From an uncultured Desulfobacteraceae bacterium (GTDB taxonomy: Bacteria; Desulfobacterota; Desulfobacteria; Desulfobacterales; JALSRD01), in contig CAYUAQ010000001.1 in NCBI GenBank assembly GCA_964442705.1, positions 14,976 through 78,975 on the forward strand: a DNA stretch of 64,000 bases. Direction: 5' to 3'. Shown in pieces: positions 13,293 to 44,123 of this stretch. A program made the position numbers and the translations under genes. Each line of letters starts with the position of its first letter. Position 1 is the first letter of the stretch. The notes below the pieces were generated by a model. The model was not told the DNA's origin. It did no database searches and saw only the letters and a list, made by a program, of their open reading frames with translations.

Positions 13293-13444
13293 GCATAATT
13301 ACGGGGTGGCCTGCTGGTGCAACATCCCTGGCGGGATCACCCTGACAGCAGATCAAGTGCCGGCGTGCAGACGGTTCGTCGCGCCGGCACCGCTGTTTGC
13401 AGCCCTATAAAAGAGACCCCGGTTTCGCACAGGAAGGATTTCAG

Positions 13445-17861: not shown

Positions 17862-18928
17862 ATCAGGAAAAGGCCGAGGAGCTCAACCGCATCAAGAAAG
17901 AGCGTCGGATCGGAAACCTCGACAACCCCAACATGCCCTATGATTACAGTCGCCGGGAATACGGCACGGTGCCCCGTGACACCACGCGGGCCCCTTTTCA
18001 GTGGGTGTCCGAGGTGGCCTACAAGAACGTGCACCGCATCGTGTCCCGCGGGTACGACACCACCGAACTGATGGAGGAAGGCTACGGGGTGGTGGACGTC
18101 CTGTTCGTGGACTACCAGGCCCGCATTCCCACCATCGAAGAGAGCCGGATGCTCAACTACGTCATGATCCTGGCGCTGGAGGACGGACTGTCCATGCCGG
18201 CGGCCATATCGCGCATCGTGGCCCACGCCAAGACTTTCCTGACCCAGGCCTGCGGGGCCTCGGTACTGGCCTTCGGCCACGCCTACGGCGCTTACTCGGC
18301 CTTCGGCAACCGGCTGGAGAAATACATCCAGAAGGTCGACGACGACGGCATAAGCCTGCAGGAGGCCGCCGAGGCGCTGGTGGCCGAGAACCTGCACGAC
18401 GAGGCCCTGGGAGTATCGGGGTTGATGCTCAGGGACCCCGCAGCCAAGCGGATGATCGCAAGGGCGGAAAAGCTTGGTGTGGCAGGGCGTTACATCAAGT
18501 TTTTAAAGGAAATTGTAAAGGCTGCCCAGAAGGCTTCGGATGCTCCCGTGGACGTGGACATGCTGGGGGCCAGCGGGGCGGTCATGATGGATCTGGGGTT
18601 TTCGCCCGAGGCCGCCTGGGCCATCATGGCGGTCACTCGGGCCTATGCCGCCGGCGCCCATTTCATCGAGGAGATCGAGCGCAGCGCCTACACGCGCCTG
18701 GGCCAGGAACTGACGCCGCCGGAGGACTACGACGGGCCGGCGGAAAAGCCGGTGCCGCCCTTAAAAGACCGCGCCAAGGTCGCCAAGCCCGCCCTGTGCC
18801 GCACGCCCCAGGAGTGGAAGCAGCGCTTCGAGGAGATGAAAAAACTCTCCGGCAGCGGGTTCGCCATCATCGAGGAAATCGAGGACCCCAGCAAGAAGTC
18901 CGGCATCAAGAAGGTGGGGAAGTTGTGA
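17849..18928 (+). CDS. Citrate-synthase-fold protein B (paralog of the upstream gene, more diverged)
   Basis: 359 aa. Motifs: VLAFGHAYGAYSAFG, GVSGLMLRDPAAK, GFSPEAAWAIMAVTRAYAAGAHFIEEIER. Start MGYIDQEK has an AGAGGGGGA RBS and overlaps the upstream gene by 13 nt. The longer alternative N-terminus from 17630 is Arg/Pro-rich and implausible. Confidence 0.65.
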   Translation: MGYIDQEKAEELNRIKKERRIGNLDNPNMPYDYSRREYGTVPRDTTRAPFQWVSEVAYKNVHRIVSRGYDTTELMEEGYGVVDVLFVDYQARIPTIEESRMLNYVMILALEDGLSMPAAISRIVAHAKTFLTQACGASVLAFGHAYGAYSAFGNRLEKYIQKVDDDGISLQEAAEALVAENLHDEALGVSGLMLRDPAAKRMIARAEKLGVAGRYIKFLKEIVKAAQKASDAPVDVDMLGASGAVMMDLGFSPEAAWAIMAVTRAYAAGAHFIEEIERSAYTRLGQELTPPEDYDGPAEKPVPPLKDRAKVAKPALCRTPQEWKQRFEEMKKLSGSGFAIIEEIEDPSKKSGIKKVGKL

Positions 18929-23283: not shown

Positions 23284-23371
23284 TCCGAACGCCACCAGCG
23301 ACCCACTCATTATATGGCCTGGGTGGGTTTGGTGGTTTTGGTGGATGGGAAATATTGCCAGACGACAGGCG

Positions 23372-24277
23372 CTAAAAGATCGACTGCATGTAGCTCTGCG
23401 TCCAGCGGTCGATGCGCACGATCAGGGCCCTGAGCGGCTCGGAGAGGTACTTGTCGCGGTGGTGCACCAGGTAGAACTTGCGCGTCAGGGTCTTGTCGGT
23501 CAGCGGGATTTCCGCCAGGCGGCCGGCCTGTATCTCTTCCTGGGCCACCTTGCGGCTGATCAGGGCGATACCCAGCCCGGCTTCCACGGCCTCCTTGATG
23601 GCCCGGTTGCTGGAAAGCTCCATGGGGATCGTCAGGGACAGCTTGTTGACCTGCACCAGTTTTTCCAGCGCCCGGCGGGGGGCCGATCCCGGCTCGTGCA
23701 CGATCATGGGGTGGTCCTCGAGATCGCGGGGGTCGAGGAGGTGTTTGCGGGTGATGGGGTGGCCCGGCGGCACGATGAGTATCAGGCGGTCCTCCAGGAT
23801 TTCCTGCATGATGATTTTGGGGTTGCCGATGGGGTAGGAGATAAACCCCAGGTCGCACTCCAGGGCAACTACTTTTTCCACCACCAGGTCGCTGGGCAGG
23901 ATGCTGACCGACAGCGTTATGTGAGGGTTGGCACGGCAGAAGGGCGTCGTGATGGAGGGCAGGTAGTAAGCGCCGAAACTCTCGCTGGCGTGCACGCGGA
24001 TGTGCCCCTTTTCAAATTTCTGGAATTCGCGTATGCTCTCTTCGGCAAAGCGCTCCATTTCGAAGATCTTTTCGGCCACCTCGTAAAGGGCCTCGCCGGC
24101 ATCGGTGAGTGCCATTTTTTTCCCGAAACGGTTGATGAAGCGCAGCTCGTACTGCTCCTGCAGCCGCTGGATGCCCTTGGTGACGGCCGGCTGGGTGATG
24201 TTAAGCTCACGAGCGGCGGCACTCAGGTTACCGTGGCGCGCCGCCAAGTAGAAAATCTTCAGCAAATTCAGGTTCAT
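23372..24277 (-). CDS. LysR-family transcriptional regulator
   Basis: MNLNLLKIFYLAARHGNLSAAARELNITQPAVTKGIQRLQEQY (LysR HTH) plus a substrate-binding domain. Start taken at MNLNLL. The longest ORF runs to 24358. Confidence 0.88.
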   Translation of the reverse strand: MNLNLLKIFYLAARHGNLSAAARELNITQPAVTKGIQRLQEQYELRFINRFGKKMALTDAGEALYEVAEKIFEMERFAEESIREFQKFEKGHIRVHASESFGAYYLPSITTPFCRANPHITLSVSILPSDLVVEKVVALECDLGFISYPIGNPKIIMQEILEDRLILIVPPGHPITRKHLLDPRDLEDHPMIVHEPGSAPRRALEKLVQVNKLSLTIPMELSSNRAIKEAVEAGLGIALISRKVAQEEIQAGRLAEIPLTDKTLTRKFYLVHHRDKYLSEPLRALIVRIDRWTQSYMQSIF

Positions 24278-24289
24278 TACTGCAATATC

Positions 24290-24310
24290 ATTACATTTGG
24301 TTATGGTAAT
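24290..24310. promoter_or_regulatory. LysR-type T-N11-A operator in the divergent intergenic region
   Basis: ATTAC-N11-GTAAT (ATTACatttggttatgGTAAT) 13 nt upstream of the LysR start. A further ATTAC direct copy lies at 24276-24280. Confidence 0.5.
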
Positions 24311-24489
24311 GAATAAAAGTATGATCTGCCAATAGCACAGCCAAGACGGCCGGATCAATCTTTTTGCACGCGCAGGAGTTGGCAGGCAGAGCAGCGGGGG
24401 AAGCGGCGCGAAGGATCAGGGTTGGCTTTTGCCCGATGGTAAGGTAAAAGAAAAGCCCATTCACCAAATAATCCAGGCTTACAGGAGCC

Positions 24490-25752
24490 ATGGTTTTCCG
24501 GAAACACCAAAACTGTCTGCCGTTGTTGCTCTTCCTGCTGACGGGCCTGCTGCTGCCTGCAGCCGCCGGCGCCCTCGAACCGCGCGAAGTGCTGGTGGTG
24601 GCCAACGACAGCACCCGAGACAGCCTGTCCCTGGCCAAACTGTACATGCAGAAACGCGCCGTCCCGGCGCAAAACCTGCTGGTTTTAAAAACCGCAAACG
24701 GCGAAGTTTGTTCACGCCGGCAGTACGACCGCGATATCGCGGCACCTGTCCGGCGCTACCTCGAGGGCCGCAAGGACGGTGGTGCCGGCATCCGCTGCCT
24801 CGTGCTGATGGCGGGAGTGCCGCTTAAAATCGGCCCCTCCGACGAGAACCGCCTGCGGCGCATGCAGATTCTGCAGAAGGAGGTCCAGCGTCTGTCCGAA
24901 CAGCTGGACGCCGGGAAAGACGGCAGGGGAGAGGGCGCCGAAAGCCTCCAGGCAGCCATCAAGAAGGTGCGCAGCGAGATAACGGCGCTTCAGGCGCTCA
25001 CCGACCAGGCGGCGGTGGATTCGGAACTGACGGTGGTCAGAGCCGGAGACTATCCCCTGGAGGGGTGGGTGCCCAACCCCTTTTTTTACGGCTTCCGTAA
25101 AAAAACATTCACCCTGGTGAAAAAGGGTCACGTGCTGATGGTCAGCCGGCTGGACGGCCCCACAACCGCAACGGTGCGTCGCATCATCAATGACAGCCTG
25201 GCGGCGGAAACCGTGGGACTGCGGGGAAAAGCCTGTTTCGACGCCCGCTGGAAGATGCCGGACAAACGACCCCAGAGTGGTTATGCCCTGTACGACTATT
25301 CCATTCACCAGGCCGCACGGTTGATCCGCAAATCCGGCTTGATGCCGGTGGCCACCGACAGCCGTGACACCCTCTTTCAGAAGGGGCAGTGCCCCGCTGC
25401 AGCGCTGTACTGCGGGTGGTACAGCCTGGGAAAATACGTGGACGCTTTCACCTGGCAGAAGGGGGCGGTGGGCTATCACATCGCCAGCAGTGAATGCGCC
25501 TCGCTGCGCAACCAAAAGAGCCGCGGGTGGTGCAAGATGATGCTGGAAAAGGGCGTGGCCGCCACCATCGGGCCCGTTTACGAACCTTACGTGCAGGCCT
25601 TTCCGCTGCCGGAGATTTTTTTCTCCTTGCTGGTTGACGGCTACCTGACCTTGGGCGAATGCTACCTGGTCAGCCTGCCGTACCTCTCCTGGCAGATGGT
25701 GCTGGTGGGCGATCCACTGTACCGGCCGTTCGAGAAGCGGCGGCGGCAGTGA
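24490..25752 (+). CDS. Secreted/periplasmic conserved hypothetical protein (resembles TIGR03790-type proteins from memory)
   Basis: Signal peptide LPLLLFLLTGLLLPAAAGA. 420 aa. No catalytic motif recognised. Confidence 0.6.
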   Translation: MVFRKHQNCLPLLLFLLTGLLLPAAAGALEPREVLVVANDSTRDSLSLAKLYMQKRAVPAQNLLVLKTANGEVCSRRQYDRDIAAPVRRYLEGRKDGGAGIRCLVLMAGVPLKIGPSDENRLRRMQILQKEVQRLSEQLDAGKDGRGEGAESLQAAIKKVRSEITALQALTDQAAVDSELTVVRAGDYPLEGWVPNPFFYGFRKKTFTLVKKGHVLMVSRLDGPTTATVRRIINDSLAAETVGLRGKACFDARWKMPDKRPQSGYALYDYSIHQAARLIRKSGLMPVATDSRDTLFQKGQCPAAALYCGWYSLGKYVDAFTWQKGAVGYHIASSECASLRNQKSRGWCKMMLEKGVAATIGPVYEPYVQAFPLPEIFFSLLVDGYLTLGECYLVSLPYLSWQMVLVGDPLYRPFEKRRRQ

Positions 25753-28146: not shown

Positions 28147-28365
28147 GAGACCCCCTCGGCAGCGGACCGGATAATCCCGGTAATCGAAAATCGGCCCGTG
28201 GAATCCCCTTTACAAAAAGATGCAATTGAAATAAAATCTGGCCCTAAAATCCGGAGAGAGTGAACATTTCGGCAGCAGCCCGGACGGCACACCACTGTTG
28301 GTACTGGGTGTCAGCGATCGGTGTGTGTATCTAACGATCCGGGCTGACGGTTTTGAGGCGGACGG

Positions 28366-31032
28366 ATGGGCAGAAGACGAAAAAAAAAGAGCAGATCGGC
28401 CAGGAAAAAAAAGGATCAGCGGCGGGCCAATGCGCCACCGGAGAAGCTCATCCGGCAGGCTGCCCAGGAACTCGAAAACGGTCGGGCTCGTGATGCCATA
28501 ACCCTGCTGAAACTGGCATCCCGCAAAAAGAGAGGCGACGATGAAATCCGCGGCCTTTTTTTAAGGGCATATCTCCTGCGGGAAGAGCAGTTGAGGCGGA
28601 AAGGCCTCGAGGTGGAGGCCGAAAGCGTCCATCTGCAGGCTCTCTCCCACCTGCCGCAGACAGGCCCTCTGGCGGAGGTCGACCTTGGGGCCCTGGTGCG
28701 TGCCGGCGGCATGGATGATGCCGTCAAGATTTACAACCGGCACCTGTCCGGCGGCAAGCCGCTAGTGTCGGTGGAACGTCAGCTCGCCGAACGCCTGTTG
28801 ATCAGCGGCCAGTGGATTCTGCTGGAAAAAGTGGATTCGGCCGCCGGGCTGCATCGCGAGGCCGAACACGCCCAAGCGGCGGCGGAACTTATGAACGCCG
28901 GCCGATGGGATGCCGCCCTGCAAAGGCTGGCCCCGGTCTCGCGGTCCTCTCCATACGCCACTCTGCGATTGCTCTGTCATGCCATGGTGATTTTTCTGGA
29001 GGGTAGAGATGAAAGCCTGGACAGGGTTGTGGCGATCATGCCGCGGGATTCCCTGCTCTATTCTCTGATTAAAACACTGGCCCATGCACCGCAGACATTG
29101 AACTGTCTGTGGGAACGGCCGGTCTATCCCGAAGACAAGGTGCGGAAAATCATCGCCGACATGCGGCAGCACCGCTTCCGAAATCTGGAATCCATCCTTC
29201 CCGGTGCGGCGCGTTCCCTCTATCCCCGTGATCCGGAGGTGGCCATGGGGAATATCCTGGAGGCTTTCTGGTCTCTGGGCATCACGAACGATTCGTTCCG
29301 GGATGGGTATTTCGACCTGATCGATACACTGTTGCCGGGGGAGGCGGCCAGCCTGCTACAGGCCAAGATGGACTTCTATTACTTTGACCAGCTGTACATC
29401 GATGCGGGAATTTACCTGGAGGAACTGGGCGCGGAATTTCCCGACCCACGGGACGAAAAAATCGCGGCCGCCACGATACTCTTTCAAGCAGTAGAACGCC
29501 TTCGCCGCAACGATGACTTCTACCGCATGGCTTCTTCGTTGTCTCGCCACCTGGAGGAATTGCTGGGAATATCTTCCGACGATCCGGATGTGAGACTGCT
29601 CGAGATGTTGAGCAGGGCCATCGAGCTGGACCCGTCTGCCCGGCATGTATACGGCCTCATGGCCCAAATGCCCCGATATTCACGGGCCGCCAAAAACCTG
29701 GTGGAGGCCGGATTGAAAACCATGATGCGGCAATTTGATGATGATCCTTTCCCCTGCCTGGAACTGGCCACGCTGTATTACGAAAAAAACGCCTATCGCA
29801 AGGCCGAGGCGGTGCTGTCCGAGGCTATCGAGCGTGCACCCCACGATGCCGCGGTACTGGAGCGGCACGTGTACGCACTGCTGATTTCAGCGGGTAAACG
29901 CATCCGCAGGAAAAAATTTCACCTGGCATCCGAAGACCTGGAAAAGGCACGACGGTTGTGCAGCGGAGAATCCCTGGCCCTGGTGGTAGCCAAGCAGGTG
30001 GTTTTTGATGTCGAGCAGCGGGGGCAGCTGGATCTCTTCGGAAAAGCGGTGGACAGCCGCGGCAAAAAAATTAGCCCTCTGGTCGAGCAGGCGCTGGAAC
30101 CGCTTTGCCTGTTGGACCGGTTGAAAATGCTGGGGCTTCTCATCAACGATGCAATGCAGCGACAGCCGCGTTGGGCGGACAAACAGATCAAGGAGCTTCG
30201 CCGGATGCTGAGCCGCGAATGCAAGCAGTTGGAACGACTATCGTCCAGAGACATACGCGGGCTGCTTCAACCACTGAAAAAGGAACTGACATCGGTAGTG
30301 CGTGAACGCCGACTGGCCGGTATTTACCTCCGGGCCAGGGCAGACATCCTGCGGCTTCTGCGAGACGATGATTACCTGTCGGTGCTGGATGCACTGGTCC
30401 AAGCCGGCTTGTTCGGGGAAGTCATCAAGGAAAACCGGCGCCGTCTGAAAAAAGGTGCCGGCGCTAGTGCAAACCTGTTGGATTTTTATGTGGTCGTCAT
30501 CCGGCACCTGGCTGATGACAGCCTGCATGATGCCGATGCTTTTGAAACGGTTGTCCAGCGGGCCTCGGATCCTTCGGAGAGAGAGGCCCTGCGGGCTGCG
30601 GCGCGCAGACTGGCGCGTAACGCTTGCGGCGACCTGGAAAAAGCGCTTCTCAACTTCGATTTCAATCTGTTGCGGCCCAGAGATTTTTTCCCCCCGGACT
30701 TCTTCCCTGTAATTGCGGACGATGATGCGTATGATGAGTTCGATGACGAGATTGACGGCCTAAATGACATCGCCGAAATGCAGGGCCTGATGGATCTTTT
30801 CATGGGCAAATCCCCGTCCGGACCCTTGGTGGATCGCCTGCTTGAAATGGTTGAAAAGATGGTGGATTCCTTTGACCTCAGGGAGGCATCGACCAGGCGG
30901 ATTCGGCGCGCCCGGGAGGGCCTCATGCGCAGGGATCCTGAAATTGCCATTATCGGAATGATGGTCCGACAACTCAACGAAAAGCAGATGGCGCGCCTTT
31001 CCCGGGAAGCGCTTCAACTGCTGTTCGGTTGA
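28366..31032 (+). CDS. Large all-alpha (TPR/HEAT-like) protein with a poly-basic N-terminus and an acidic C-terminal patch; unknown function
   Basis: 888 aa. Starts MGRRRKKKSRSARKKKDQRR. TPR-like segments (LATLYYEKNAYRKAEAVLSEAIERAP). Acidic stretch DDDAYDEFDDEIDGLNDIAEMQ. First gene of the Hsp70 operon. Confidence 0.7.
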   Translation: MGRRRKKKSRSARKKKDQRRANAPPEKLIRQAAQELENGRARDAITLLKLASRKKRGDDEIRGLFLRAYLLREEQLRRKGLEVEAESVHLQALSHLPQTGPLAEVDLGALVRAGGMDDAVKIYNRHLSGGKPLVSVERQLAERLLISGQWILLEKVDSAAGLHREAEHAQAAAELMNAGRWDAALQRLAPVSRSSPYATLRLLCHAMVIFLEGRDESLDRVVAIMPRDSLLYSLIKTLAHAPQTLNCLWERPVYPEDKVRKIIADMRQHRFRNLESILPGAARSLYPRDPEVAMGNILEAFWSLGITNDSFRDGYFDLIDTLLPGEAASLLQAKMDFYYFDQLYIDAGIYLEELGAEFPDPRDEKIAAATILFQAVERLRRNDDFYRMASSLSRHLEELLGISSDDPDVRLLEMLSRAIELDPSARHVYGLMAQMPRYSRAAKNLVEAGLKTMMRQFDDDPFPCLELATLYYEKNAYRKAEAVLSEAIERAPHDAAVLERHVYALLISAGKRIRRKKFHLASEDLEKARRLCSGESLALVVAKQVVFDVEQRGQLDLFGKAVDSRGKKISPLVEQALEPLCLLDRLKMLGLLINDAMQRQPRWADKQIKELRRMLSRECKQLERLSSRDIRGLLQPLKKELTSVVRERRLAGIYLRARADILRLLRDDDYLSVLDALVQAGLFGEVIKENRRRLKKGAGASANLLDFYVVVIRHLADDSLHDADAFETVVQRASDPSEREALRAAARRLARNACGDLEKALLNFDFNLLRPRDFFPPDFFPVIADDDAYDEFDDEIDGLNDIAEMQGLMDLFMGKSPSGPLVDRLLEMVEKMVDSFDLREASTRRIRRAREGLMRRDPEIAIIGMMVRQLNEKQMARLSREALQLLFG

Positions 31033-31084
31033 GGGCCGTACTGCCGCAGTCGACGGGCACCACGACAACACTGGAGGGCGTAGC

Positions 31085-31396
31085 ATGCTGATTTGCTTCC
31101 TCACCCTGGGACTCGACACCGACGCTTCGGACGACGAGATCCGTAAGCGATACCTGGAACTGATTCGACGGCACACGCCGGAAAAAGATCCGGCCCGTTT
31201 TCAGGTGATAGCCGATGCTTACGAAAAAATCAAAGACCGACGCACCCGCATTGTTCACCAGGTGCTGGGCGGCATGGCCATCAGCGATCCCGATCCCTAT
31301 TTGTTGGCATTGTTTCGGGCCGCCCGCCCCGAAAAACGCAGCCCCGGCCTGAGGGAACTGCTGTCGGATGCCGGCCTGCAGGAACGATCATTCTGA
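31085..31396 (+). CDS. Small J-domain-like protein with a non-canonical HPD region
   Basis: LGLDTDASDDEIRKRYLELIRRHTPEKDPARFQVIADAYEKIKD follows the J-domain helix II/III pattern, but HPD is replaced by H-T-P-E. GGAGGG RBS. Confidence 0.65.
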   Translation: MLICFLTLGLDTDASDDEIRKRYLELIRRHTPEKDPARFQVIADAYEKIKDRRTRIVHQVLGGMAISDPDPYLLALFRAARPEKRSPGLRELLSDAGLQERSF

Positions 31397-31399
31397 CTA

Positions 31400-32251
31400 A
31401 TGGGTGAGGTCATGGTTGCAACCCCTGTCTCAGCGCATCTTAAAAAGGCTTGGCACTGGTCTCGGCGTAGGATGATATTTCCCGTGCTGCATGGTGCCGC
31501 CGCCACGCTGTCTGTCTGGCAAAGATCCCTGTCCCGGCGCTGGGATCTGCAGCGGCGCGACCGGCCGGAATGGAAACAGCAGGTGCTGTCGGATTTCAAT
31601 GTCTGGTTGACCGATCTGCCCGACGAGCCGCCGGAAGCCGCCGATCTTTCCCCTGAAGCTTGCGACTTGTATACCCTGCTGATGGAATTCACGGCCCTGC
31701 GCCAGGAAATCCGCCTCCAGAACCGCGAGCAGCATCGCAGCATCAGCGATGTACGGGAACTGATCGAGCAGTGTGCCAAGGCCGCCGACCTTTTCCGGGA
31801 CCGTACCGAGCAGCTGCCCCTGCTGGAGGAGCGCATACGGTGCAGTGCCGAGAAGAAGGTGATTCTGCCGTTTCTGGACGTTCGTGAAGCCCTGGTGCGG
31901 GGTCTGGAGGCCGCCCGCGGTGTGGCCCGCCGGAAGAACCTGTTCACACGCATGCCGGCCGGCATCGAAGGCGTCATCGAGGGGTACGAGATGGCTCTGC
32001 GACGGTTCGACCGCGTTCTTTCCCAGGTTGATGTCAGGCCCCTGGAGGCCGTAGGACGTCCTTTTGATGCAGCCGTCATGCGCGCGGTCGACAGGAGATG
32101 GGATGCCGACCGTGCCGCCGGCCTCGTTTTGGAGGAGCTTCGCAGCGGGTTCATGCGTAAAGACGAGGTTCTGCGCATCGCCGAAGTGGTGGTCAACACA
32201 CCGCAGCCGATAACGGAAAACGGAAACAACACGCCTGCACCGCAGGGATGA
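31400..32251 (+). CDS. GrpE-like nucleotide exchange factor (diverged)
   Basis: Coiled-coil segment (DLYTLLMEFTALRQEIRLQNRE) followed by a GrpE-type C-terminal beta domain (VRPLEAVGRPFDAAVMRAV....VLEELRSGFMRKDEVLRIAEVVV). Starts 3 nt after the J-like gene. Confidence 0.6.
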   Translation: MGEVMVATPVSAHLKKAWHWSRRRMIFPVLHGAAATLSVWQRSLSRRWDLQRRDRPEWKQQVLSDFNVWLTDLPDEPPEAADLSPEACDLYTLLMEFTALRQEIRLQNREQHRSISDVRELIEQCAKAADLFRDRTEQLPLLEERIRCSAEKKVILPFLDVREALVRGLEAARGVARRKNLFTRMPAGIEGVIEGYEMALRRFDRVLSQVDVRPLEAVGRPFDAAVMRAVDRRWDADRAAGLVLEELRSGFMRKDEVLRIAEVVVNTPQPITENGNNTPAPQG

Positions 32252-32269
32252 TTTTCAAGGAGGAGAGTT

Positions 32270-34009
32270 ATGGAGCCGATCATCGGCATCGATCTGGGAA
32301 CCACCAATTCGGAAGTGGCCTTTGCCTTCGATGGCCGTGTCGAAGTCATCGAGGACAATGACAACGGCATCCTGCCTTCCTGTGTGGGCCTCTCGGATCA
32401 CGGAAGAATCATTGTCGGTGCCGAAGCCCGTAACCAGGCCGTCATCGCCCCTGAGCGCACCGTGCTTTCGGTCAAGCGCCGCATGGGAAGCAACGACAAA
32501 CTGACGTTGGGCGATGCGGAATTTCTCCCCCAAGAGATTTCGGCCTTTATTTTGAAAGCCTTGCGCAAGCGGGCCGAAAACCGCATCGGCCAGGCGGTGA
32601 ACAAAGCCGTCATCACGGTGCCGGCCTACTTCACCGATGCCCAGCGGCAGGCCACCCGCGAAGCCGGGCAGATTGCCGGGCTGGAAGTGGTGCGCATCAT
32701 CAACGAACCCACCGCCGCGGCCTTGGCTTACGAAAGCCTGAACGCCGAACCCCGGCGCATCCTGGTGTACGATCTGGGTGGCGGCACTTTCGACGTGTCC
32801 ATCGTCAGCATCGAAGAGGGGGTGGTGGAGGTGTTGTCCAGCACCGGCGACAGCCGCTTGGGCGGCGATGACTTCGATCGGCGCATTGTCACTCACCTGG
32901 TGTCGCATATCGAGGAAGAACTGAAACTGCCGGTGCGCGAGAATCCGGTAACCATGGCCCGTCTCCTGCGGGCGGCCGAAGCGGCCAAGATCGAACTCTC
33001 CACCCGCCCCTTCACCACCGTCGAAGAGGATCATATCGGCAGGAAAATGGGCAGAGACCTTCATCTGTCCCTGGAGGTTTCGAGAAAGCAGTTTGAGGAC
33101 ATGATCGCGACCGACCTGGCACGCACCATGGAATCGATCAACAAAGCCCTGAAGGATGCCAGCCTGCTTCCGGGTGCCATCGACAAGATCATCCTGGTGG
33201 GCGGCTCGACCCGCATTCCGCGCATCTCCCAGATGCTGGAGGAAAAATTCAGGCAACAGGCCCATGGACACATTGACCCGGACCTGTGCGTGGCCATGGG
33301 AGCCGGCATCCAGGCGGGTCGGGAGATGGGCGAAGACGATTCGGGGGTGCTGGTGGATATTACGCCATACACCTTCGGCACGTCCGCCATGGGAGAAGTC
33401 GACGGGCAGCACAGCCTGACCATGTTCGTTCCCCTGATCCGGCGCAATACCAAGCTCCCGGCCAGGCACAGCGAGGTTTTTTTTACCGTCGTGGAGAACC
33501 AGGAAGAGGTGGATGTGCGCGTCTATCAGGGGGAAGCGCCCGATGCCGAAGACAACATCCTGCTGGGCAACTACAGTTTCAAACTGACGCCGGCGCCGGC
33601 CGGCAGCAAGATCATCCTGGACTTCGAACTGGACCTCAACGGCATTCTCAAAATCAAAGCCATCGAGAAAAAGACCGGCAAATTCATCGACGCCGTCATC
33701 GAAAACGCCATATCCCGGTTTGACGAAGAGGCTTTGAAGCATACCCGGCAGCGCATCGACGCCCTGTGGGGAGATGACCGGGAGGAGGATGGCGGCGCAG
33801 GGAAAGAAGCAGCGGCTGCGGTCATGCCCGCCAAGTACGCAAGTCTCATTCGCCGGGCCGAAGAAAAATTGCCCGAGGCTGCCGCAGAAGACCGCGACGA
33901 GCTTATCAACCTCATCGAGGATATCCGAGACGCCCTGCAGGCCGGTAAAGAAGACGAGGCGGACCGGCTGTACCAGGAACTGGATGATATCCTCTTTTAC
34001 ATCGGCTGA
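32270..34009 (+). CDS. Hsp70-family ATPase (short DnaK paralog, 579 aa)
   Basis: IGIDLGTTNSEVA, VITVPAYFTDAQRQATREAG, RIINEPTAAALAY, VYDLGGGTFDVSI, ILVGGSTRIPRI. The substrate-binding domain is present and the lid is shortened. AAGGAGG RBS. Confidence 0.9.
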   Translation: MEPIIGIDLGTTNSEVAFAFDGRVEVIEDNDNGILPSCVGLSDHGRIIVGAEARNQAVIAPERTVLSVKRRMGSNDKLTLGDAEFLPQEISAFILKALRKRAENRIGQAVNKAVITVPAYFTDAQRQATREAGQIAGLEVVRIINEPTAAALAYESLNAEPRRILVYDLGGGTFDVSIVSIEEGVVEVLSSTGDSRLGGDDFDRRIVTHLVSHIEEELKLPVRENPVTMARLLRAAEAAKIELSTRPFTTVEEDHIGRKMGRDLHLSLEVSRKQFEDMIATDLARTMESINKALKDASLLPGAIDKIILVGGSTRIPRISQMLEEKFRQQAHGHIDPDLCVAMGAGIQAGREMGEDDSGVLVDITPYTFGTSAMGEVDGQHSLTMFVPLIRRNTKLPARHSEVFFTVVENQEEVDVRVYQGEAPDAEDNILLGNYSFKLTPAPAGSKIILDFELDLNGILKIKAIEKKTGKFIDAVIENAISRFDEEALKHTRQRIDALWGDDREEDGGAGKEAAAAVMPAKYASLIRRAEEKLPEAAAEDRDELINLIEDIRDALQAGKEDEADRLYQELDDILFYIG

Positions 34010-34025
34010 CCCGGGAGGGCTGTTC

Positions 34026-34322
34026 ATGAAGCGATGTCCCACCTGCCGCGCCCGTCTGCACGGCGGCGCGGTTTGCCACCGCTGCAAAACCGACCTGAGC
34101 ACGCTGCTGGCCGTCGAGGAAAGCTGGCGCAGGCACCTCGAAGCTGGCTGGCGGGCCGTACGGGATGATGACGTGGAAACGCTGCGCTTTCATGCCAGGC
34201 GGGCTTTCTCCCTGATATGTACGGGGGCATCTTGTCGTCTGATGGCCTGCGCGGCTTTGATGGACCATGATTACGATCTGGCCTTGAAGGTGTGGCGGAC
34301 CGGCCGTCGCCAAGGGGCGTGA
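34026..34322 (+). CDS. Small zinc-ribbon protein
   Basis: MKRCPTCRARLHGGAVCHRCKTDL (CxxC-N10-CxxC) followed by a helical tail. Starts 16 nt after the Hsp70 stop. Confidence 0.5.
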   Translation: MKRCPTCRARLHGGAVCHRCKTDLSTLLAVEESWRRHLEAGWRAVRDDDVETLRFHARRAFSLICTGASCRLMACAALMDHDYDLALKVWRTGRRQGA

Positions 34323-34340
34323 CCGCCACCTTGCTGTCGC

Positions 34341-34811
34341 CTACTGTCTGTTTCTCTCCGACATGATCTGCGCGTAGGCCTGCTGGATCTCCTTGAAGCG
34401 CTGCTCGGCCAGTTCCCGGAATTCACGCCCGAGGTGGGTCACCTTGTCCGGGTGGTATTTGGCGGCAAGCTGGCGATAGGCGCGCTTGACCTCATCTGCC
34501 GGGGCACCGGGCGCCACACCCAGAATGGCATAAGGATCGTCCGGCGAGACCCGCCCTTTTTGCGCGCTGCCACCTTCATGACCGCCGGCCCGGGCTTCTT
34601 GCGCCCCTTCCTGACGGTTCCCATGGCCGGCATCATCCGGGCGCCGCACACGGCGCCGCTGCAGGGACTGCTGCACTGATTTGTAGATCCACCACACGAA
34701 AAGTCCGGCCAGCAGGTCATCCAGCCACCCCCAGCCCACCAGAAAATCCGGCACCAGGTCATAGGGATTTAGAATATACAGCAGTGCAATGATGGTAAAC
34801 AGGATCTTCAT
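34341..34811 (-). CDS. Membrane-anchored J-domain protein (DUF1232/YkvA-like N-terminus + canonical DnaJ domain)
   Basis: N-terminus LNPYDLVPDFLVGWGWLDDLLAGLFVWW (DUF1232 pattern). C-terminus DPYAILGVAPGAPADEVKRAYRQLAAKYHPDK with intact HPD. Confidence 0.8.
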   Translation of the reverse strand: MKILFTIIALLYILNPYDLVPDFLVGWGWLDDLLAGLFVWWIYKSVQQSLQRRRVRRPDDAGHGNRQEGAQEARAGGHEGGSAQKGRVSPDDPYAILGVAPGAPADEVKRAYRQLAAKYHPDKVTHLGREFRELAEQRFKEIQQAYAQIMSERNRQ

Positions 34812-35187: not shown

Positions 35188-35237
35188 TATTGTCAGGACA
35201 GGACCATATCTGTTGTGACCATAGACGAGAGGCCGAT

Positions 35238-35819
35238 ATGAAGAAGAAAGAAACAGGTTTTACCATAATGGAGCTCATGGTGGCTACGGCCATCTTCGGC
35301 ATTCTGTGCGCCGTTGCGGTGCCCAACATGATCGGCAGTCTGCCGGGGCACCGGCTGCGCAGTGCGGCGGGCGACGTCCGGTCCAATCTGCAGCTCGCCA
35401 AGTTGCGGGCCGTCAAGGAAAATCGATTTTATGCCGTCGCTTTTGATAAAAACTCCGATACTTACCGGGTAGTAAACTGCGGTCCTGATAATAGGTACAA
35501 CACGAGCGATGACGCCACGGTAAAAACGGTGGATCTGAATGAATACGGCAGTGGCGTCAGTTATGGCCATGGTGCAGCGACAAGCGGTGTCAGCGGAGCA
35601 AGCTTCGGGGACGAAATCACCTTCCCGACTGATCCGTTAAGTTCGGTAGACAACATGGCCATGTTTTCACCCACCGGTTTAGCCAGTCATGTTTCCGGTT
35701 CGTTCTGTGTCGGTTATGTATATTTAGCCAACAACCGTAGAGAAACCATCGCGGTAGGGGCCAATTCAATCGCCGGCAACATAACGTCGAAAAGCTGGGT
35801 CGGTGGTGGTTGGAAATAG
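35238..35819 (+). CDS. fimT: Type IV minor pilin, FimT/GspH-like
   Basis: Prepilin signal MKKKETG|FTIMELMVATAIFGIL, then a GspH-like segment (HRLRSAAGDVRSNLQLAKLRAV). Confidence 0.75.
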   Translation: MKKKETGFTIMELMVATAIFGILCAVAVPNMIGSLPGHRLRSAAGDVRSNLQLAKLRAVKENRFYAVAFDKNSDTYRVVNCGPDNRYNTSDDATVKTVDLNEYGSGVSYGHGAATSGVSGASFGDEITFPTDPLSSVDNMAMFSPTGLASHVSGSFCVGYVYLANNRRETIAVGANSIAGNITSKSWVGGGWK

Positions 35820-35837
35820 CATGCAAGGGAGAAAGAA

Positions 35838-36587
35838 ATGAAGAGCAATCGGAATGGTTTTACCCTGGTGGAGCTGCTGATCGCCATGGCTATTTCCAGT
35901 ATTGTCCTGGGGGTGATCGTGGTTACCTACCAATCACAAGCCAAGACGCATATGACCCAGCAGGAAGTCGTGGGCATGCATCAAAATGCGCGGGCCGCCA
36001 TGGACCTGATGACCCGCGAGATCCGCACGGTTGGCCTGGACCCCACCGGCAACGGCGGAGCAGGGGTCTATTCCGGTGGTGCCCAAGCCGGCTACCTGCA
36101 TTTCAGCAGGGATTTTACCGTAAGCCGGTTAAATGGCCAGGACGATGACTCCGATGGAGAAGTCGACGAGACGGATGAATGGGCCGACGGCACCATCGGG
36201 ACGACAGGCGGCGAAGATATCGATTACCGGCTGTCCAATGACAGCGATGGAGACGGGGTGGCCGACGGCTTTCCCTGCACCCTTCAGAGAAAATCTCTGC
36301 CGCTGGCAGAGAATATCGAAGTGCTTAACTTCGTTTACCTGGATGCCGATGGCGGGGTGATTGCATCGCCGGTTCCTGACGCAAGACTTGCCGATATCCG
36401 TTCAATACAGGTGACCCTCATAGCACGCACCGATGATCCGGTAATGATGCGTAAAGCAAGCGACAGCAATGTTTACAGGAACCAGCAGGGTACCGTCTTG
36501 TTGGACAAGTCATCGAACCCGGATACGGTGCGACGTATTCTGTTAACCACCGAGGTTCGTTGCCGTAACATGGGCCTGCTCAACTGA
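35838..36587 (+). CDS. pilW: Type IV minor pilin PilW-like
   Basis: MKSNRNG|FTLVELLIAMAISSIVLGVIVVTY. Size and position are typical of PilW. Confidence 0.7.
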   Translation: MKSNRNGFTLVELLIAMAISSIVLGVIVVTYQSQAKTHMTQQEVVGMHQNARAAMDLMTREIRTVGLDPTGNGGAGVYSGGAQAGYLHFSRDFTVSRLNGQDDDSDGEVDETDEWADGTIGTTGGEDIDYRLSNDSDGDGVADGFPCTLQRKSLPLAENIEVLNFVYLDADGGVIASPVPDARLADIRSIQVTLIARTDDPVMMRKASDSNVYRNQQGTVLLDKSSNPDTVRRILLTTEVRCRNMGLLN

Positions 36588-36609
36588 TCCTGAAAGAGGG
36601 AATCGTTTT

Positions 36610-37017
36610 ATGTATACCGAACACTACGAACAAGCGAACATGTCCGACCGGGAAAATGGGTTCACCCTCATAGAGGTTATGATCGCCATGGCAATATTCG
36701 CCGTAGGAATTCTGGCAGTTGCCGGCATGCAGCTTTCCGCCACTAAAGGCAACACGTCATCGGGCAAGATGACACGGGCGGCCATCATCGCCCAGACTCA
36801 GATGGAGCAGCTGGCTGCCCTCAAATACAATGACGCCCTGAATGCAGTGGGCAGCCATGCGTATGCCGGCAACCCCATCGAAGGGCAGTACAACGTTTCC
36901 TGGACCGTGACCGGTGATAGTCCCATCCAGCATACCAAGACCATCGATGTGACCGTAACCTGGCAGGGAGGACAGCGACAGGTGACGCTGACTTCGATAA
37001 AAGACGACATCCTGTAA
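36610..37017 (+). CDS. pilV: Type IV minor pilin PilV-like
   Basis: G|FTLIEVMIAMAIFAVGILAVAGMQ, a PilV-type N-terminus. An alternative start lies at 36640. Confidence 0.7.
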   Translation: MYTEHYEQANMSDRENGFTLIEVMIAMAIFAVGILAVAGMQLSATKGNTSSGKMTRAAIIAQTQMEQLAALKYNDALNAVGSHAYAGNPIEGQYNVSWTVTGDSPIQHTKTIDVTVTWQGGQRQVTLTSIKDDIL

Positions 37018-37042
37018 AGTCAAAGTGAAAGGAAAGCATTCC

Positions 37043-37612
37043 ATGCAGATCATTTCCAAACTTGCCGGAGACGAACAGGGTTCCGCACTGATATTTGCCA
37101 TTCTTATCCTGGCGCTGCTGACCATTCTGGGAATCTCGTCGAGCAACACCAGCATTGTGGAAAGCATGATTTCCGGCAATGACACGCTGTCGAAAATGGC
37201 CTTTCAGCAGGCAGACGGCGGCACCCAGGCCGGCATCGAACTGCTGGAGCAGAACATAGAGAACCGGGGGTTCGACACCGGGGAGTTGTCCGCTATTCCC
37301 GGGATCACCGTGAACAACACCAACCTCTTTTTAAATACTTCCGCCAATGACCCTTCAGACGATGCCGACACCAGTCGGGATGCCTATATGCCCAAGGGCG
37401 GTGCTGTCAATCAACCGCACACCAACCTGACGTTCGGCGGGATTGCGGGCTTGTCCACGGGTTCGGCCATTCAGATGGCGGCCGGATACGAGGGCAAAGG
37501 CAAGTCCGCAGGCAACAGCGGGGCGTGGATCATCTATGATATCCGCTCGGCGCGCAAGGACGTGAAAAATGCCGAGGCAAAGGTCCGGGTCAGATGGCGG
37601 CACGTCATTTAA
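37043..37612 (+). CDS. pilX: PilX-like minor pilin (PilX N-terminal domain)
   Basis: EQGSALIFAILILALLTILGISSSNTSIVESMISGN. Start at ATG 37043 with an AAGGAAAG RBS. Confidence 0.6.
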   Translation: MQIISKLAGDEQGSALIFAILILALLTILGISSSNTSIVESMISGNDTLSKMAFQQADGGTQAGIELLEQNIENRGFDTGELSAIPGITVNNTNLFLNTSANDPSDDADTSRDAYMPKGGAVNQPHTNLTFGGIAGLSTGSAIQMAAGYEGKGKSAGNSGAWIIYDIRSARKDVKNAEAKVRVRWRHVI

Positions 37613-37646
37613 AACAGCATTAACCCCTCTAACCCCAGGTGATGAT

Positions 37647-37964
37647 ATGAAAATAAAAAAGGCTCTGTTAACAGTATTTATCCTTGTCGTCATGTTCATT
37701 TCAGGCAGTATCAGTCAGGCCGGAAGCTACTGGCAGACGGGTCGCGTGACAAAGTCGGCCTGGCACGACAGGTACTGGTACGTTGAAATCAATACCGTAA
37801 AGTATACCCTCATGCCCGAGGTGAGCGTACTGGTGCCCTCGGAGAGAAAATTGTATCGGGGCGGCACGGATCGTTTTCGGCCTTCGTCGTATCTGAGCTA
37901 CGGCAGGAAGTTGATGGTCAAGATTGAAGGCCGCAGAATCTATGAGATTATCGTATCTAAATAG
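37647..37964 (+). CDS. Small secreted protein of unknown function (105 aa) inside the pilus operon
   Basis: Signal peptide MKIKKALLTVFILVVMFISGSISQA. No known motif. Confidence 0.5.
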   Translation: MKIKKALLTVFILVVMFISGSISQAGSYWQTGRVTKSAWHDRYWYVEINTVKYTLMPEVSVLVPSERKLYRGGTDRFRPSSYLSYGRKLMVKIEGRRIYEIIVSK

Positions 37965-37974
37965 GGGTGCAGAC

Positions 37975-40900
37975 ATGTTGAAAAAATCGATGATACTACT
38001 GATATTGATGTCCCTGGTGTGTGTCGGCGGGCTGAACAGCAGTGCCCGGGCTGAAAACATGGGAGACTACAGCCTGCTGCCGCCTTTTGTCACCGCCGGC
38101 GTGCCCCCCTTGGTCATGCTGGTTATCGGACGAAACCACAAACTTTACTACGAAGCTTACAACGATGCCTCTGATCTGAATGACGACGGCATTCTGGATG
38201 TCGGCTACAATCCGTCAATAGACTACTACGGGTACTTCGATTCCCACAAAGAGTATGTTTACAGCACCGCCAACCATCGCTTCGAACCGGTGGCGGTCAC
38301 CTTCGACAAAAAGGTGAGCGCTGGCGGCCGCTGGAGCGGGGATTTTCTCAACTACCTGACCATGTCCCGCATGGACGCCCTGCGCAAGGTGCTGTATGGC
38401 GGCTACCGCTCGACGGACACGGACTCGGAAACCGTTCTGGAGCGGGTCTATATTCCCCAGGACGCCCACAGCTGGGGCAAGGAATACGAGAGCGTTTCCC
38501 GCGACGGGTATGATATCAGCGAGTACACGCCCCTCGATCTTCCCCTAGACGGCTACCGGCACCTGTTTGCTTCCACGACCTTATCCGAAAACGGTGATCC
38601 GGTTTTAAGGGTCATGCCCAACAGCATTCACCGCATCTGGGAGTGGGTTTCCAAGGAACGGCCGGTGTGCGACAACTCGCTGGTGTCCAGCGGGGGCAAT
38701 TACAACAGTTATCCTAGCGACCACGATGCCTATGAAGACCTGGTTTTGCAGTTCGCCAACGCCGGCCACCTTCAGGGGACCCAGCCGGTGGACAATATCG
38801 ACGGCAGCGGAAACCCGTTTGGCTCGGACGAATACTATCTCACCATTTTTACGGGAAAGATCAACATTGCCACGGCCGGGACCTACGAGTTTGCCGTGGA
38901 CGGCGACGACGCCGTCGAGGTGATCATCGACGGCACCGTGGTGGCCGGGTGGTACGACGGACACGGCAGGTGCAGTTGCCATGATCACAGCGGTAGTATC
39001 GTCCTGGACGCCGGGGAATATGACATCGAATTCAGGCACCAGGAAACCACCGGCGGCGACTATTACCACCTGTGGTGGAAGGGGCCTGACAGCGACAGCC
39101 ATGACTGGGAGATCGTTCCCAAGGACGCATTTTCGGGTTTGACGCAAACCGTTTACAACGTGTCAACGCCCGTTTCCACCATCACCGACTATCAGGTGCG
39201 CGTACTGGTGGGAAAGCCGGACATGCCGGAGTCCAACTGCAAGCTTTACCCCAACGGCAACTACAAGCCGGTGGGGATTCTGCAGCGCTACGGCGAATCC
39301 GACCGCATGTACTTCGGCCTCATCACGGGCTCCTATGCCAAGAACACCTCCGGTGGTGTACTGCGCAAAAACATTTCATCCATCACCGATGAGATCGATC
39401 CCAACACGGGACAGTTTACCAGTGTCAACGGTATCATCGCCACGCTGGACAAGTTTCGGATCTACGACTTCAATTACGGCGACTATTCATACCGTCCCGG
39501 ATGGGAAGATGCCTGGGTGACCACCAGGCCCATGAACGAGGGTGAGTTCCCGGACTGGGGCAACCCCATTGCCGAGATGCTGTACGAAGGCATGCGCTAC
39601 TTTGCCGGCAAGGCCAGCCCCACCGGTGATTTTGTATACGGCAGCGGCACACCGGACGAAACCCTGGGACTGCCCCTGGCAAACTGGAACGACCCCTATG
39701 ACACGGCCAACGGCGGCTTCAGCTACTGTGCCAAGCCGTTTATTCTGATGATCAGCGACATCAACCCCACCTACGACTCGGATCAGCTGCCGGGGGTGGA
39801 CGGCAATTTCGGGTCGTTCAGCGGCGACATGTCCGGTATGAATGTTTCGGACCTGGCCAATACCATCTCGGGCAATGAGGGCATCGCGGGCTACCATTAC
39901 ATCGGCCAGGTGGGCAGCGATTATGATGGATCTCCCCGTCCGAAGCTCGTCAGCGGCTTCGGCAACATCCGGGGGCTGTGCCCCGAAGAGCCCACCAAGC
40001 AGGGCAGCTACTACTCGGCCAGCGTTGCCTACTACGGCCGCAAGACCGATTTGAACAGCGCCACGGAAGACCAGAAGGTGAGTACCTATGCGGTGGGGCT
40101 GGCCTCGCCGCTGCCCAGGATCACCATTCCGGTGGGCGACCAGACCATTACCCTGGTGCCCTTCGCCAAATCCGTGGGCGGATGCCTGGGCATCAGCGGC
40201 GCCCAGGGCGACTTCCAGGCTACCAATACGATTGTCGATTTTTATATCGAGGAAATTACGCCTACCCAAGGCGTTTTCAGGATCAACTTCGAAGACGTGG
40301 AACAGGCCGCCGACCATGACATGGATGCCATTGTAAAATACGAATACACGGTCAATGCCGACGGCACGGTCACGATTACGTTGACTTCCACATACGCCTC
40401 CGGCTGTATCATCCAGCACCTCGGTTACGTGATTTCCGGCACCACCGAGGACGGCACCTACCTGGAGGTAACGGACGCAGACACCGCCGTCGGCAGCGAT
40501 GTGGATTATTTCCTGGACACGCCGCCGGGCCAGAGTCCGGGCGGCACTTGGGCAGATGGTGCGGATCTCCCCATGACGACCAGCCGGACTTTTACACCGG
40601 GGGCCACCACCACCGCAACCCTGCTGAAAAACCCGCTCTGGTATGCCGCCAAGTGGGGCGGGTTCCAGGAATCACCGGACGACCAGAACGATCTGCCGGA
40701 CCAGGACGAGGAGTGGGACAAAGACGGCGACGGCGTTCCCGACACCTACTTTTACGTCACCAACCCATTGCGGCTGGAGGAACAGCTCAACAAGTCCTTT
40801 GCCGATATTCTGAGCCGGACTTCCTCCGGTACGGCCGCATCGGTCATCTCCAGTTCCCGGTCCGGTGAAGGCGCGGTTTACCAGTCCGTGTTTTTTCCCG

Positions 40901-43356: not shown

Positions 43357-43496
43357 GTCTGAAACGCCAGTCCTGACGCTCCCGAAAAGGATCGGCGGCT
43401 GGCTGGAATGCCCCTTGGGCTCAAGACGGAGACAGAATAACCGATACTGAAAACAGAGGCTGAAACTCCGGTGTCCAAGAAAACTACGAGACTGTC

Positions 43497-44120
43497 ATGA
43501 AGGAGGGCGATGACGTGAAACCTGGATGCATGCGTAATTGGATGTTGCTGCTGCTGGCAGTTGTGATTGTCGGTTTGCTGCTGCCCGGCGGCACATGGGC
43601 AAAGGTATACAGATTTGTGGACGAGGATGGAATCGTTCATTTCACCGACAATGCGTTGCAGGTTCCCATGGACCAGCGTCTGCCGCTTGAGGAGGCTCCT
43701 CTGCAGACAGAGGAAAAATCAGCCGTCCGTCCTCCGTCGCCGCCCTCACCCGACGGGCAAAACATGCGGGGTGTGCGCCAGAAGAGAGAAGCCCTGAAAA
43801 AACAGCAGACCAGCATGAATACGCGCTTCGCACAGCTGAACCGGCAGAAGAAGCGGCTCGATGCCGAACTGGAAGCCATCAACCAGGAACGGCAACAGTT
43901 GGAGAAAGAAAGCGTCGTCAAGCATTCCAAACGATCATACCGCATTTACAAGCAGAAAGTAGAACGGCTGGATGCCCGCATCAAAGCCTATAATGATCGG
44001 CGACAGGCGTTCAACAAGCAGGTCGAAGCCTACAATGAAAAAATGCGGCAGTTTGAGGAGCAGCGTCGGCGGTTAAACGCCGCCATCGATGCCTTTGACC
44101 AGGCCAAAATGGAAGACTGA
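43497..44120 (+). CDS. DUF4124-like secreted coiled-coil protein
   Basis: Signal/TM segment (WMLLLLAVVIVGLLLPGGTWA), then KVYRFVDEDGIVHFTDN (DUF4124 pattern) and a long K/E/Q/R-rich coiled coil. Confidence 0.6.
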   Translation: MKEGDDVKPGCMRNWMLLLLAVVIVGLLLPGGTWAKVYRFVDEDGIVHFTDNALQVPMDQRLPLEEAPLQTEEKSAVRPPSPPSPDGQNMRGVRQKREALKKQQTSMNTRFAQLNRQKKRLDAELEAINQERQQLEKESVVKHSKRSYRIYKQKVERLDARIKAYNDRRQAFNKQVEAYNEKMRQFEEQRRRLNAAIDAFDQAKMED

Positions 44121-44123
44121 CCA

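Follow-up and report, generated by a model that had tools for sequence, protein, structure and literature searches.

What kind of chaperone machine is specified by a locus in which an Hsp70 gene is accompanied by genes for a divergent GrpE, a J-like protein, a long TPR-like protein and a small zinc-ribbon protein, and does it represent the housekeeping DnaK system or an addition to it? The question is raised by five co-directional genes in a 64,000-nucleotide stretch of DNA from an uncultured Desulfobacteraceae bacterium (contig CAYUAQ010000001.1, positions 14,976 to 78,975). This whole stretch is called the window here, and coordinates given without a locus name refer to it. The open reading frames (ORFs) of the cassette, the first four as given by ORF calling, are the following.

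28366..31032, + strand: gene 1, the scaffold ORF, 888 amino acids (aa)
31085..31396, + strand: gene 2, the J-like ORF, 103 aa
31400..32251, + strand: gene 3, the GrpE-like ORF, 283 aa
32270..34009, + strand: gene 4, the Hsp70 ORF, 579 aa
34026..34322, + strand: gene 5, the zinc-ribbon ORF, 98 aa, starting at an internal ATG of a longer ORF

The successive gaps between these genes are 52, 3, 18 and 16 nucleotides (nt). A sequence-only reading of the window had listed the same five ORFs and gaps, which were borne out, all on the + strand, and its domain calls (TPR-like, J-like, GrpE-like, Hsp70 and CxxC...CxxC in the cassette, and DUF1232 plus a J domain in a neighboring gene) were confirmed by Pfam and NCBIfam. 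It had also proposed a self-contained, non-housekeeping Hsp70 module, and this proposal is supported by two results described below, namely that the Hsp70 misses the cut-offs for DnaK equivalogs and that the five genes are conserved as a unit. On balance, the locus is probably an accessory, self-contained Hsp70 operon that runs a second chaperone cycle with private cofactors beside the housekeeping DnaK system.

The five genes are inherited as one unit, which has been kept across deep divergence in at least two phyla without conserved neighbors. Relatives of the scaffold were first found in metagenome-assembled genomes (MAGs) of Desulfobacterales, at 30-42% identity, and the first three genomic contexts had the same five genes in the same order between unrelated flanks. 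When the window proteins were used in tblastn searches and the loci were read with 10 kb of flank on each side, the five-gene order was seen in every related locus with enough contig (~30 loci), with the scaffold gene first at all of them; because the same order recurs wherever there is enough sequence, the arrangement is far beyond chance. Loci L001-L040 are from Desulfobacterales and show the full order wherever the contig suffices. The cassette is intact in loci L041, L042, L044 and L054 though their scaffolds are 23% and their Hsp70s 46% identical to those of the window, and loci L045, L052, L053 and L055 (73% GC) likewise carry all of it. Whether the cassette would prove to be conserved as a unit had been left as a question by the sequence-only reading, and the answer is that it is, even with the scaffold at 23% identity. 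Measured against the window proteins, the Desulfobacterales-type loci are most alike in the Hsp70 (60-70% identity), followed by GrpE (45-58%), the J-like protein (40-55%), the zinc-ribbon protein (34-50%) and the scaffold (30-42%).

A scan of 185,579 species genomes detected 33 loci, all of the Desulfobacterales type, a count that is limited by the two peptide patterns on which the scan relied. The Desulfobacterales-only distribution was an artefact of those two patterns and was dropped when a profile search and later look-ups gave acidobacterial and high-GC members. By exhaustive profile search the scaffold family amounts to 199 clusters, formed at 50% identity, at E<=1e-30, a number that rises to 562 at E<=1e-10, and 372 relatives of the GrpE-like protein were found, including proteins of the multicellular magnetotactic Desulfobacterales Ca. 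Magnetoglobus and Ca. Magnetomorum. Locus L054 lies on a 7.17-Mb contig, and its flanking proteins fall in clusters of at least 90% identity with proteins of Bryobacterales (Acidobacteriota). In the subfamily with a short scaffold, that gene is followed by genes for a J-like protein of 98 aa, a GrpE of 227 aa, an Hsp70 of 568 aa and a zinc-ribbon protein of 96 aa. The full cassette of L055 was sampled at 73% GC from a 6.49-Mb contig; its Hsp70 frame (L055 13906-15859) is interrupted within the low-complexity part of the lid and the conserved C-terminal segment is then read in a different frame, which reflects either a frameshift in a long-read assembly or a pseudogene.

The surroundings of the cassette differ at every locus and consist mostly of ordinary metabolic, regulatory and housekeeping genes. 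Among 145 flanking ORFs from ~35 loci, 225 Pfam families were represented, the most recurrent of them (response regulator) 6 times; this set showed no enrichment of pilin or defence families, and N_methyl was not among the recurrent ones. No homologues were found in plasmid, phage or viral-contig collections. As these observations show, the cassette is chromosomal, and purifying selection acts jointly on its five genes in at least two phyla. A few loci depart from the common layout or share a neighbor. In one MAG (L034) a PIN-domain gene and small ORFs are inserted between the scaffold and J-like genes (12822-14084) and a 250-aa ORF without a Pfam match lies between the Hsp70 and zinc-ribbon genes (17257-18009), so that the operon evidently tolerates insertions. 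A truncated scaffold gene of 523 aa stands alone at L032 (10010-11581). A methylenetetrahydrofolate reductase gene is found a few kb 3' of the cassette in the otherwise different contexts of L001 (16033-16932) and L038 (16275-17144), which more probably reflects local synteny than a functional connection.

The Hsp70 at the center of the unit matches PF00012 over its full length (E 1.1e-144, aa 4-573), and DnaK is the closest named family in NCBIfam, but the scores for the DnaK equivalogs PRK00290 and TIGR02350 (518 vs 648 and 501.5 vs 822.55 bits) are both below the cut-off. The score for the HscA equivalog TIGR01991 is also below its cut-off (399.5 vs 708.55 bits), and neither the cassette nor its flanks contain HscB or Isc genes. 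Equivalents of DLGTTNS, K70, E171 and DLGGGTFD and the hydrophobic interdomain linker are conserved throughout the family, as are the J-docking positions aligned to DnaK R167, N170 and T173 (the numbering follows the E. coli DnaK sequence and is backed by an alignment to the solved Geobacillus DnaK). Members from different lineages are 46-56% identical to each other vs 35-41% to E. coli DnaK, and they share the loss of 24 residues from the ATPase domain, a deletion similar to that of Gram-positive DnaKs, together with a 4-residue deletion and an 8-residue insertion in the beta substrate-binding domain. The sequence-only reading had credited this protein with all of the ATPase motifs and a short lid; the motifs are indeed kept, whereas the lid helices proved to be present, with part of the helix-B region of low complexity, and what is missing is the disordered C-terminal tail. 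The extreme C-terminus is instead formed by a peptide that is conserved across lineages, with the consensus E-L-[DE]-[DE]-[IL]-L-F-[YF]-[ILM]-[GE].

33977-34006, + strand: Hsp70 C-terminal peptide ELDDILFYIG

From its sequence, the cassette Hsp70 thus looks catalytically competent, and it is not a DnaK equivalog.

The 888-aa product of gene 1 has a single significant Pfam match, to TPR_19 (aa 450-497), and no catalytic domain was recognized in it by Pfam, AlphaFold2 or Foldseek. An AlphaFold2 model built on an 18-sequence alignment is all-alpha, with a mean predicted local distance difference test (pLDDT) score of 82, and forms a continuous solenoid to about residue 770. Foldseek searches with the model returned only generic TPR scaffolds of large complexes, such as TTC21B (IFT-A), Ski3, Ctr9 and Naa15, at template modelling (TM) scores of ~0.2, and therefore gave no functional lead. 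A profile search with this protein, which had been suggested as a check, brought up the family of 199 clusters at E<=1e-30 described above. Four parts of the protein stand out.

28366..28440, + strand: polybasic N-terminal tail (MGRRRKKKSRSARKKKDQRR...), with 13 K/R in the first 25 residues
29737..29856, + strand: most conserved block, aa 458-497 (DDPFPCLELATLYYEKNAYRKAE..L.EA..RAPHD..V), identified from invariant alignment columns
30682..30810, + strand: disordered acidic Phe-rich linker, aa 773-815, pLDDT <50, lying 3' of a conserved FDF..L motif
30811..31029, + strand: small C-terminal helical domain ending LSREALQLLFG (tail motif 30997-31029), with helices at aa 819-887 in the AlphaFold2 model

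The polybasic head (6-13 K/R and 0-3 D/E) is present in most of 95 full-length members and also in the short acidobacterial subfamily. Most of the 95 have a near-invariant NA[FY]RKAE within the TPR block DDPFPCLELA.LYYEKNA[FY]RKAE...RAPHD.RV, and NAYRKAE is retained in the subfamily that is only 23% identical. The acidic linker has 10-27 D/E per 40 aa in the long-form scaffolds and is missing from the ~787-aa subfamily. Most full-length members end in the consensus LS[RK]EAxx[IL]L[FY]GK followed by basic residues; a profile of the C-terminal domain gave nothing significant against sequences in the PDB. The poly-Lys/Arg N-terminus and the acidic C-terminal patch that had been noted in the single sequence are therefore real and conserved in the family, and the suggestion that the 888-aa protein is a partner specific to this module has gained ground, as the protein is obligate and family-specific and the cassette is kept where scaffold identity has fallen to 23%.

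The remaining three proteins would be the cofactors of the same Hsp70. Gene 2 encodes a PF00226 match (33.5 bits vs a cut-off of 27.8, aa 7-55) without a Gly/Phe region or zinc-finger domain (Pfam and NCBIfam), after which comes a C-terminal extension bearing the conserved motif R..GL.EL. Canonical stimulation of Hsp70 by J domains depends on the HPD tripeptide. In pairwise alignments to solved J domains, T-P-E (codons 31175-31183) lies exactly under H-P-D; the position is occupied by [TPS]-P-E in 29 of 29 Desulfobacterales orthologues and by PPS or RPG in more distant cassettes, and HPD is found in none. The lack of this tripeptide is the reason that the product is classed as a J-like protein. 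Gene 3 encodes a protein with a clear PF01025 match (70.5 bits vs a cut-off of 25.8, aa 112-266) that misses all of the NCBIfam cut-offs for GrpE equivalogs and is therefore regarded as a divergent GrpE. Its family-specific N-terminal extension has conserved WK.K...DF..WL..LPE and CDLYTLL.EF.ALRQE blocks ahead of the core. The start of this gene is ambiguous (31400-31483), the longest ORF specifying 283 aa and an identical public record 255 aa, and the orthologue alignments are poorly conserved before about residue 26. The extension showed no correlation with the C-terminal domain of the scaffold, L045 having the domain and a short GrpE call.

The product of gene 5 starts with a C4 zinc ribbon and continues with about two TPR motifs. 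C4, P5, C7, C17, R19 and C20 are invariant in 21 orthologues, a family that was assembled from the cassette loci, as a word-indexed search with the 98-aa protein returned only the protein itself. A profile search, another of the checks suggested beforehand, matched consensus-TPR structures at aa 33-93 with E values of 4.6e-17 to 1e-4, the lowest being a whole-sequence value against multi-repeat proteins in which the individual repeat matches are each weak, and there were weak zinc-ribbon matches in Pfam for 16-17 of the 21 members. No Pfam family is above cut-off in the protein of the window, and zf-DNL (Hep1/Zim17) is not among the 25 most recurrent Pfam families listed for the 21 members.

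Expression of the cassette might begin at a candidate promoter that lies ~130 nt 5' of gene 1.

28209..28237, + strand: candidate sigma-70-type promoter TTTACA-17-TAAAAT, a pattern match only (10/12 in a consensus scan)

CIRCE, sigma-32 and sigma-54 patterns were not found within 300 nt upstream of the scaffold gene at 37 loci (the window and 36 others), in a scan that used simple patterns for lineages whose promoters are poorly known. What the cassette shares with the housekeeping DnaK-DnaJ-GrpE set are the folds of its Hsp70 and GrpE and, in the Hsp70, conserved catalytic residues, interdomain linker and J-docking face. It is unlike that set in the absence of a full DnaJ, in the lineage-specific insertions and deletions of its Hsp70, in having an EILF[YF]I end in place of the disordered tail, in the new N-terminal extension of its GrpE, in two extra obligate genes, and in that no heat-shock operator was found in the simple-pattern scan of 37 loci.

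A close precedent is the GrpS-SglK (MxDnaK2) pair of Myxococcus xanthus, in which a second Hsp70 is also paired in an operon with its own GrpE; this pair is non-heat-shock and non-essential, and SglK, like the cassette Hsp70, is without a disordered C-terminal tail (PMC11019930). As described, grpS-sglK is a bicistronic operon with no neighboring J protein (PMC11019930), and SglK is reported to be a DnaK of the full PRK00290 type, able to complement a dnaK mutant of E. coli (PMC11019930, PMC8265645). Here there are five genes rather than two, with a TPR scaffold, an HPD-less J-like protein and a zinc-ribbon-TPR protein, and the Hsp70 scores below the PRK00290 cut-off. The SglK/GrpS precedent invoked in the sequence-only reading is thus a real specialized DnaK-GrpE pair, but, being bicistronic and without a neighboring J protein, it is an analogy and not the same cassette.

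How might such an accessory operon work? The functional statements that follow draw on sequence, one predicted monomer structure and gene context. With its catalytic residues and linker kept, the Hsp70 would be a working ATPase that the GrpE resets, and the ~890-aa solenoid would be its dedicated scaffold or adaptor. The tails of eukaryotic Hsp70s dock on TPR clamps, and by analogy with EEVD tails on Hop and CHIP the acidic-hydrophobic E-[IL]-L-F-[YF]-[ILM] peptide that replaces the disordered tail may dock on a TPR groove, the candidates being the NA[FY]RKAE repeat of the scaffold and the mini-TPR of gene 5. DnaK favors hydrophobic cores flanked by basic residues, and the tail of the long-form scaffolds, with its LL[FY] core followed by basic residues, resembles a ligand of an Hsp70 substrate cleft and could serve as a tether or pseudo-substrate. 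The J-like protein keeps helices II and III and probably docks at the R167/N170/T173 face, where it would probably tune rather than simply trigger ATP hydrolysis, either in the manner of Pam16 or as a co-evolved private J protein. Through the polybasic head of the scaffold the machine is probably tethered to a polyanion, which could be nucleic acid, the ribosome or an acidic membrane, and a client would be remodelled at that site.

Two eukaryotic arrangements have likenesses to this scheme. The Hsp70-Hop/Sti1/CHIP networks also combine a conserved extreme C-terminal Hsp70 peptide with TPR partners; there the clamp is a three-TPR carboxylate clamp for EEVD, whereas the peptide here is ELDDILFYIG, the scaffold has the basic TPR motif NA[FY]RKAE, the partners are unrelated beyond the repeat itself and are encoded in the same operon, and docking would be by analogy. 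The mitochondrial import motor (Pam16, Mge1 and Hep1/Zim17) likewise places an HPD-less J-like protein, a GrpE and a small C4 zinc-ribbon protein around one Hsp70. Unlike its counterpart in that motor, the gene 5 product has no zf-DNL match and carries TPR motifs; no translocase accompanies the cassette and the membrane J protein next to it in the window is not conserved with it, which leaves a likeness of function only. It is possible, although we hold it to be doubtful, that a eukaryote-style Hsp70 network has evolved independently in bacteria, with tail-docked TPR co-chaperones, an HPD-less J regulator, a solenoid anchored by a polybasic segment and remodelling at specific sites. If that were true, it would be a machine of a kind not described in prokaryotes, and its anchor might be the ribosome, the nucleoid or RNA.

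Several points weigh against the reading of the locus as an accessory operon organized around a scaffold. Its coexistence with a canonical set is drawn from the literature on the distribution of dnaK (the gene occurs in 98.9% of bacteria, and Acidobacteria often have additional copies; PMC11019930); in the rest of the 64-kb window, which has otherwise ordinary chromosomal content, there is no canonical dnaK, dnaJ or grpE. Its functional role is deduced from composition alone, and it is motif conservation and analogy that suggest the docking of the tail on TPRs, a pseudo-substrate tail and the part played by the J-like protein. In the ~787-aa acidobacterial scaffold there is no acidic linker, C-terminal domain or basic-flanked tail, and the sequence ends ...GLF, so mechanisms that depend on those parts cannot be universal. 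Finally, there are orphan copies of the scaffold without chaperone genes: the 777-aa genes at L047 (7953-10286) and L048 (5895-8228) have a methyltransferase and a peptide ABC transporter as neighbors, and the metagenome they come from contains the full cassette L052 as well. Either the scaffold can persist alone, or the other four genes are located elsewhere in the genome.

The main mechanistic rival turns the relationship around, with the solenoid as the client. According to this explanation, which we judge to be unlikely, the solenoid assembles itself into a head-to-tail polymer, a coat or a condensate that the Hsp70 assembles or disassembles, in the way that Hsc70 and auxilin act on clathrin. 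The segments of opposite charge in the scaffold and its C-terminal tail, which resembles an Hsp70 substrate, would suit such a role, as would the resemblance of its fold to TPR subunits of large assemblies and its much faster evolution than that of the Hsp70 (30-42% vs 60-70% identity), and stoichiometric co-inheritance would be expected of a dedicated client no less than of an adaptor. The acidobacterial subfamily, however, keeps the whole cassette without the acidic linker and the basic-flanked tail, the polybasic head fits anchoring equally well, and there is no evidence of self-association.

A further explanation was suggested by the genes that lie 3' of the cassette in the window. The nearest of them converges on it, ending 18 nt from the end of gene 5.

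34341..34811, - strand: DUF1232 membrane protein with an HPD J domain, a neighbor only, 156 aa (Pfam DUF1232 and DnaJ, 60.8 bits)

This gene is present as the sequence-only reading had it, with an intact HPD; NCBIfam places its product as DjlA-like, below the cut-off, and its 90%-identity cluster holds nothing but the protein itself. The part in the machine that had been assigned to it is not upheld, as it is absent from the neighborhood of all other cassette loci. Beyond it, at 35190-45965, is a type IV pilus cluster with four prepilin-type/PilX-like minor pilins, an 1810-aa PilY1-like protein with PA14, a DUF4124 protein and an MshE-type (MshEN + T2SSE) ATPase. The minor pilin genes that had been noticed near the 3' end do begin ~0.4 kb downstream, and this proximity to minor pilins, a PilY1-like protein and an MshE-type ATPase was the ground for supposing that the cassette serves the biogenesis of type IV pili or exopolysaccharide as a dedicated chaperone. 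The example of SglK-GrpS, a specialized pair serving pilus-dependent motility and exopolysaccharide (bioRxiv 10.64898/2026.08.28.747804; PMC8265645), lends the idea some color. In the tblastn survey, however, none of the other loci has pilin or pilus genes beside the cassette, nor the DUF1232-J gene or the UDP-sugar dehydrogenase found upstream in the window, and SglK, from a bicistronic operon, is of the full PRK00290 type (PMC11019930, PMC8265645) whereas the cassette Hsp70 falls below that cut-off. Because pilus genes adjoin the cassette only in this window, the link is unsupported, and a pilus- or exopolysaccharide-dedicated chaperone is an improbable explanation.

A conflict module had been suggested as an alternative; that the cassette works on an Hsp70 basis in conflict or phage defence, the solenoid being the sensor, is quite improbable. 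HSP70 and GrpE do occur with J- or TPR-fused partners, outside the heat-shock regulon, in the GTPase-centered GAP1-N2 conflict systems (Kaur et al. 2020, PMC7159879), toxin-antitoxin genes are near or inserted at some loci (L002 and L034), and a STAND-like AAA_16 ATPase is encoded downstream at L004. The GAP1-N2 systems are, however, defined by GAP1-N2 GTPases and FNIII-repeat proteins and are found mainly in actinobacteria and firmicutes (PMC7159879), and none of the five cassette proteins has a GTPase, FNIII or effector domain in Pfam or NCBIfam. No family of PADLOC-DB v2 was matched at E<=0.01 by any of six proteins (the cassette and the DUF1232-J protein), and the composition of the cassette is uniform, with no variable effector. 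The negative results with PADLOC and with the plasmid, phage and viral-contig collections are the reason that the defence and mobile-element ideas were dropped, and the mostly housekeeping flanks are ordinary in this respect as well. That the cassette is simply the organism's housekeeping DnaK-GrpE set in an unusual arrangement is the most improbable explanation of all, for although its Hsp70 is nearest to DnaK among the named families and keeps all of the functional residues, it scores below both DnaK equivalog cut-offs, no true DnaJ accompanies it, the simple-pattern scan of 37 loci gave no heat-shock control elements, the cassette occurs in few species (33 of 185,579 genomes in the pattern-limited scan), its Hsp70s form a group of their own with shared insertions and deletions, and dnaK is near-universal with second copies frequent in Acidobacteria (PMC11019930).

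Two other regions of the window are recorded here as observations in their own right. Two upstream ORFs of 323 and 420 aa (23345-25752) have no Pfam family at E<=0.001. At 58000-64000 the G+C content drops from ~0.58 to 0.41-0.50 and there are genes for a 677-aa multi-TPR protein, a family-2 glycosyltransferase and a methyltransferase; this region looks like a horizontally acquired surface-polysaccharide island.

A full-text literature search found no description of the five-gene cassette, and named public records call the scaffold a "hypothetical" or "TPR repeat protein" and the exchange factor "GrpE". The cassette falls among the specialized bacterial Hsp70 systems and seems to be undescribed. 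Three of its cofactors are without described counterparts, namely the solenoid family, the obligately HPD-less J-like protein and the zinc-ribbon-TPR protein. To our knowledge, only a few cases of specialized second Hsp70 systems are on record for bacteria, and the factors that give them specificity are mostly not known. In at least two phyla, the accessory operon described here brings its own candidate specificity factors, in the form of the ~890-aa scaffold, the HPD-less J-like protein, a private GrpE and the zinc-ribbon-TPR protein. It therefore bears on how Hsp70 paralogues get targeted, on the role of HPD-less J-like proteins outside of mitochondria and on whether the docking of Hsp70 tails on TPRs is confined to eukaryotes, and several hundred database proteins that are now annotated as "hypothetical / TPR repeat protein" or "GrpE" would become members of one system.

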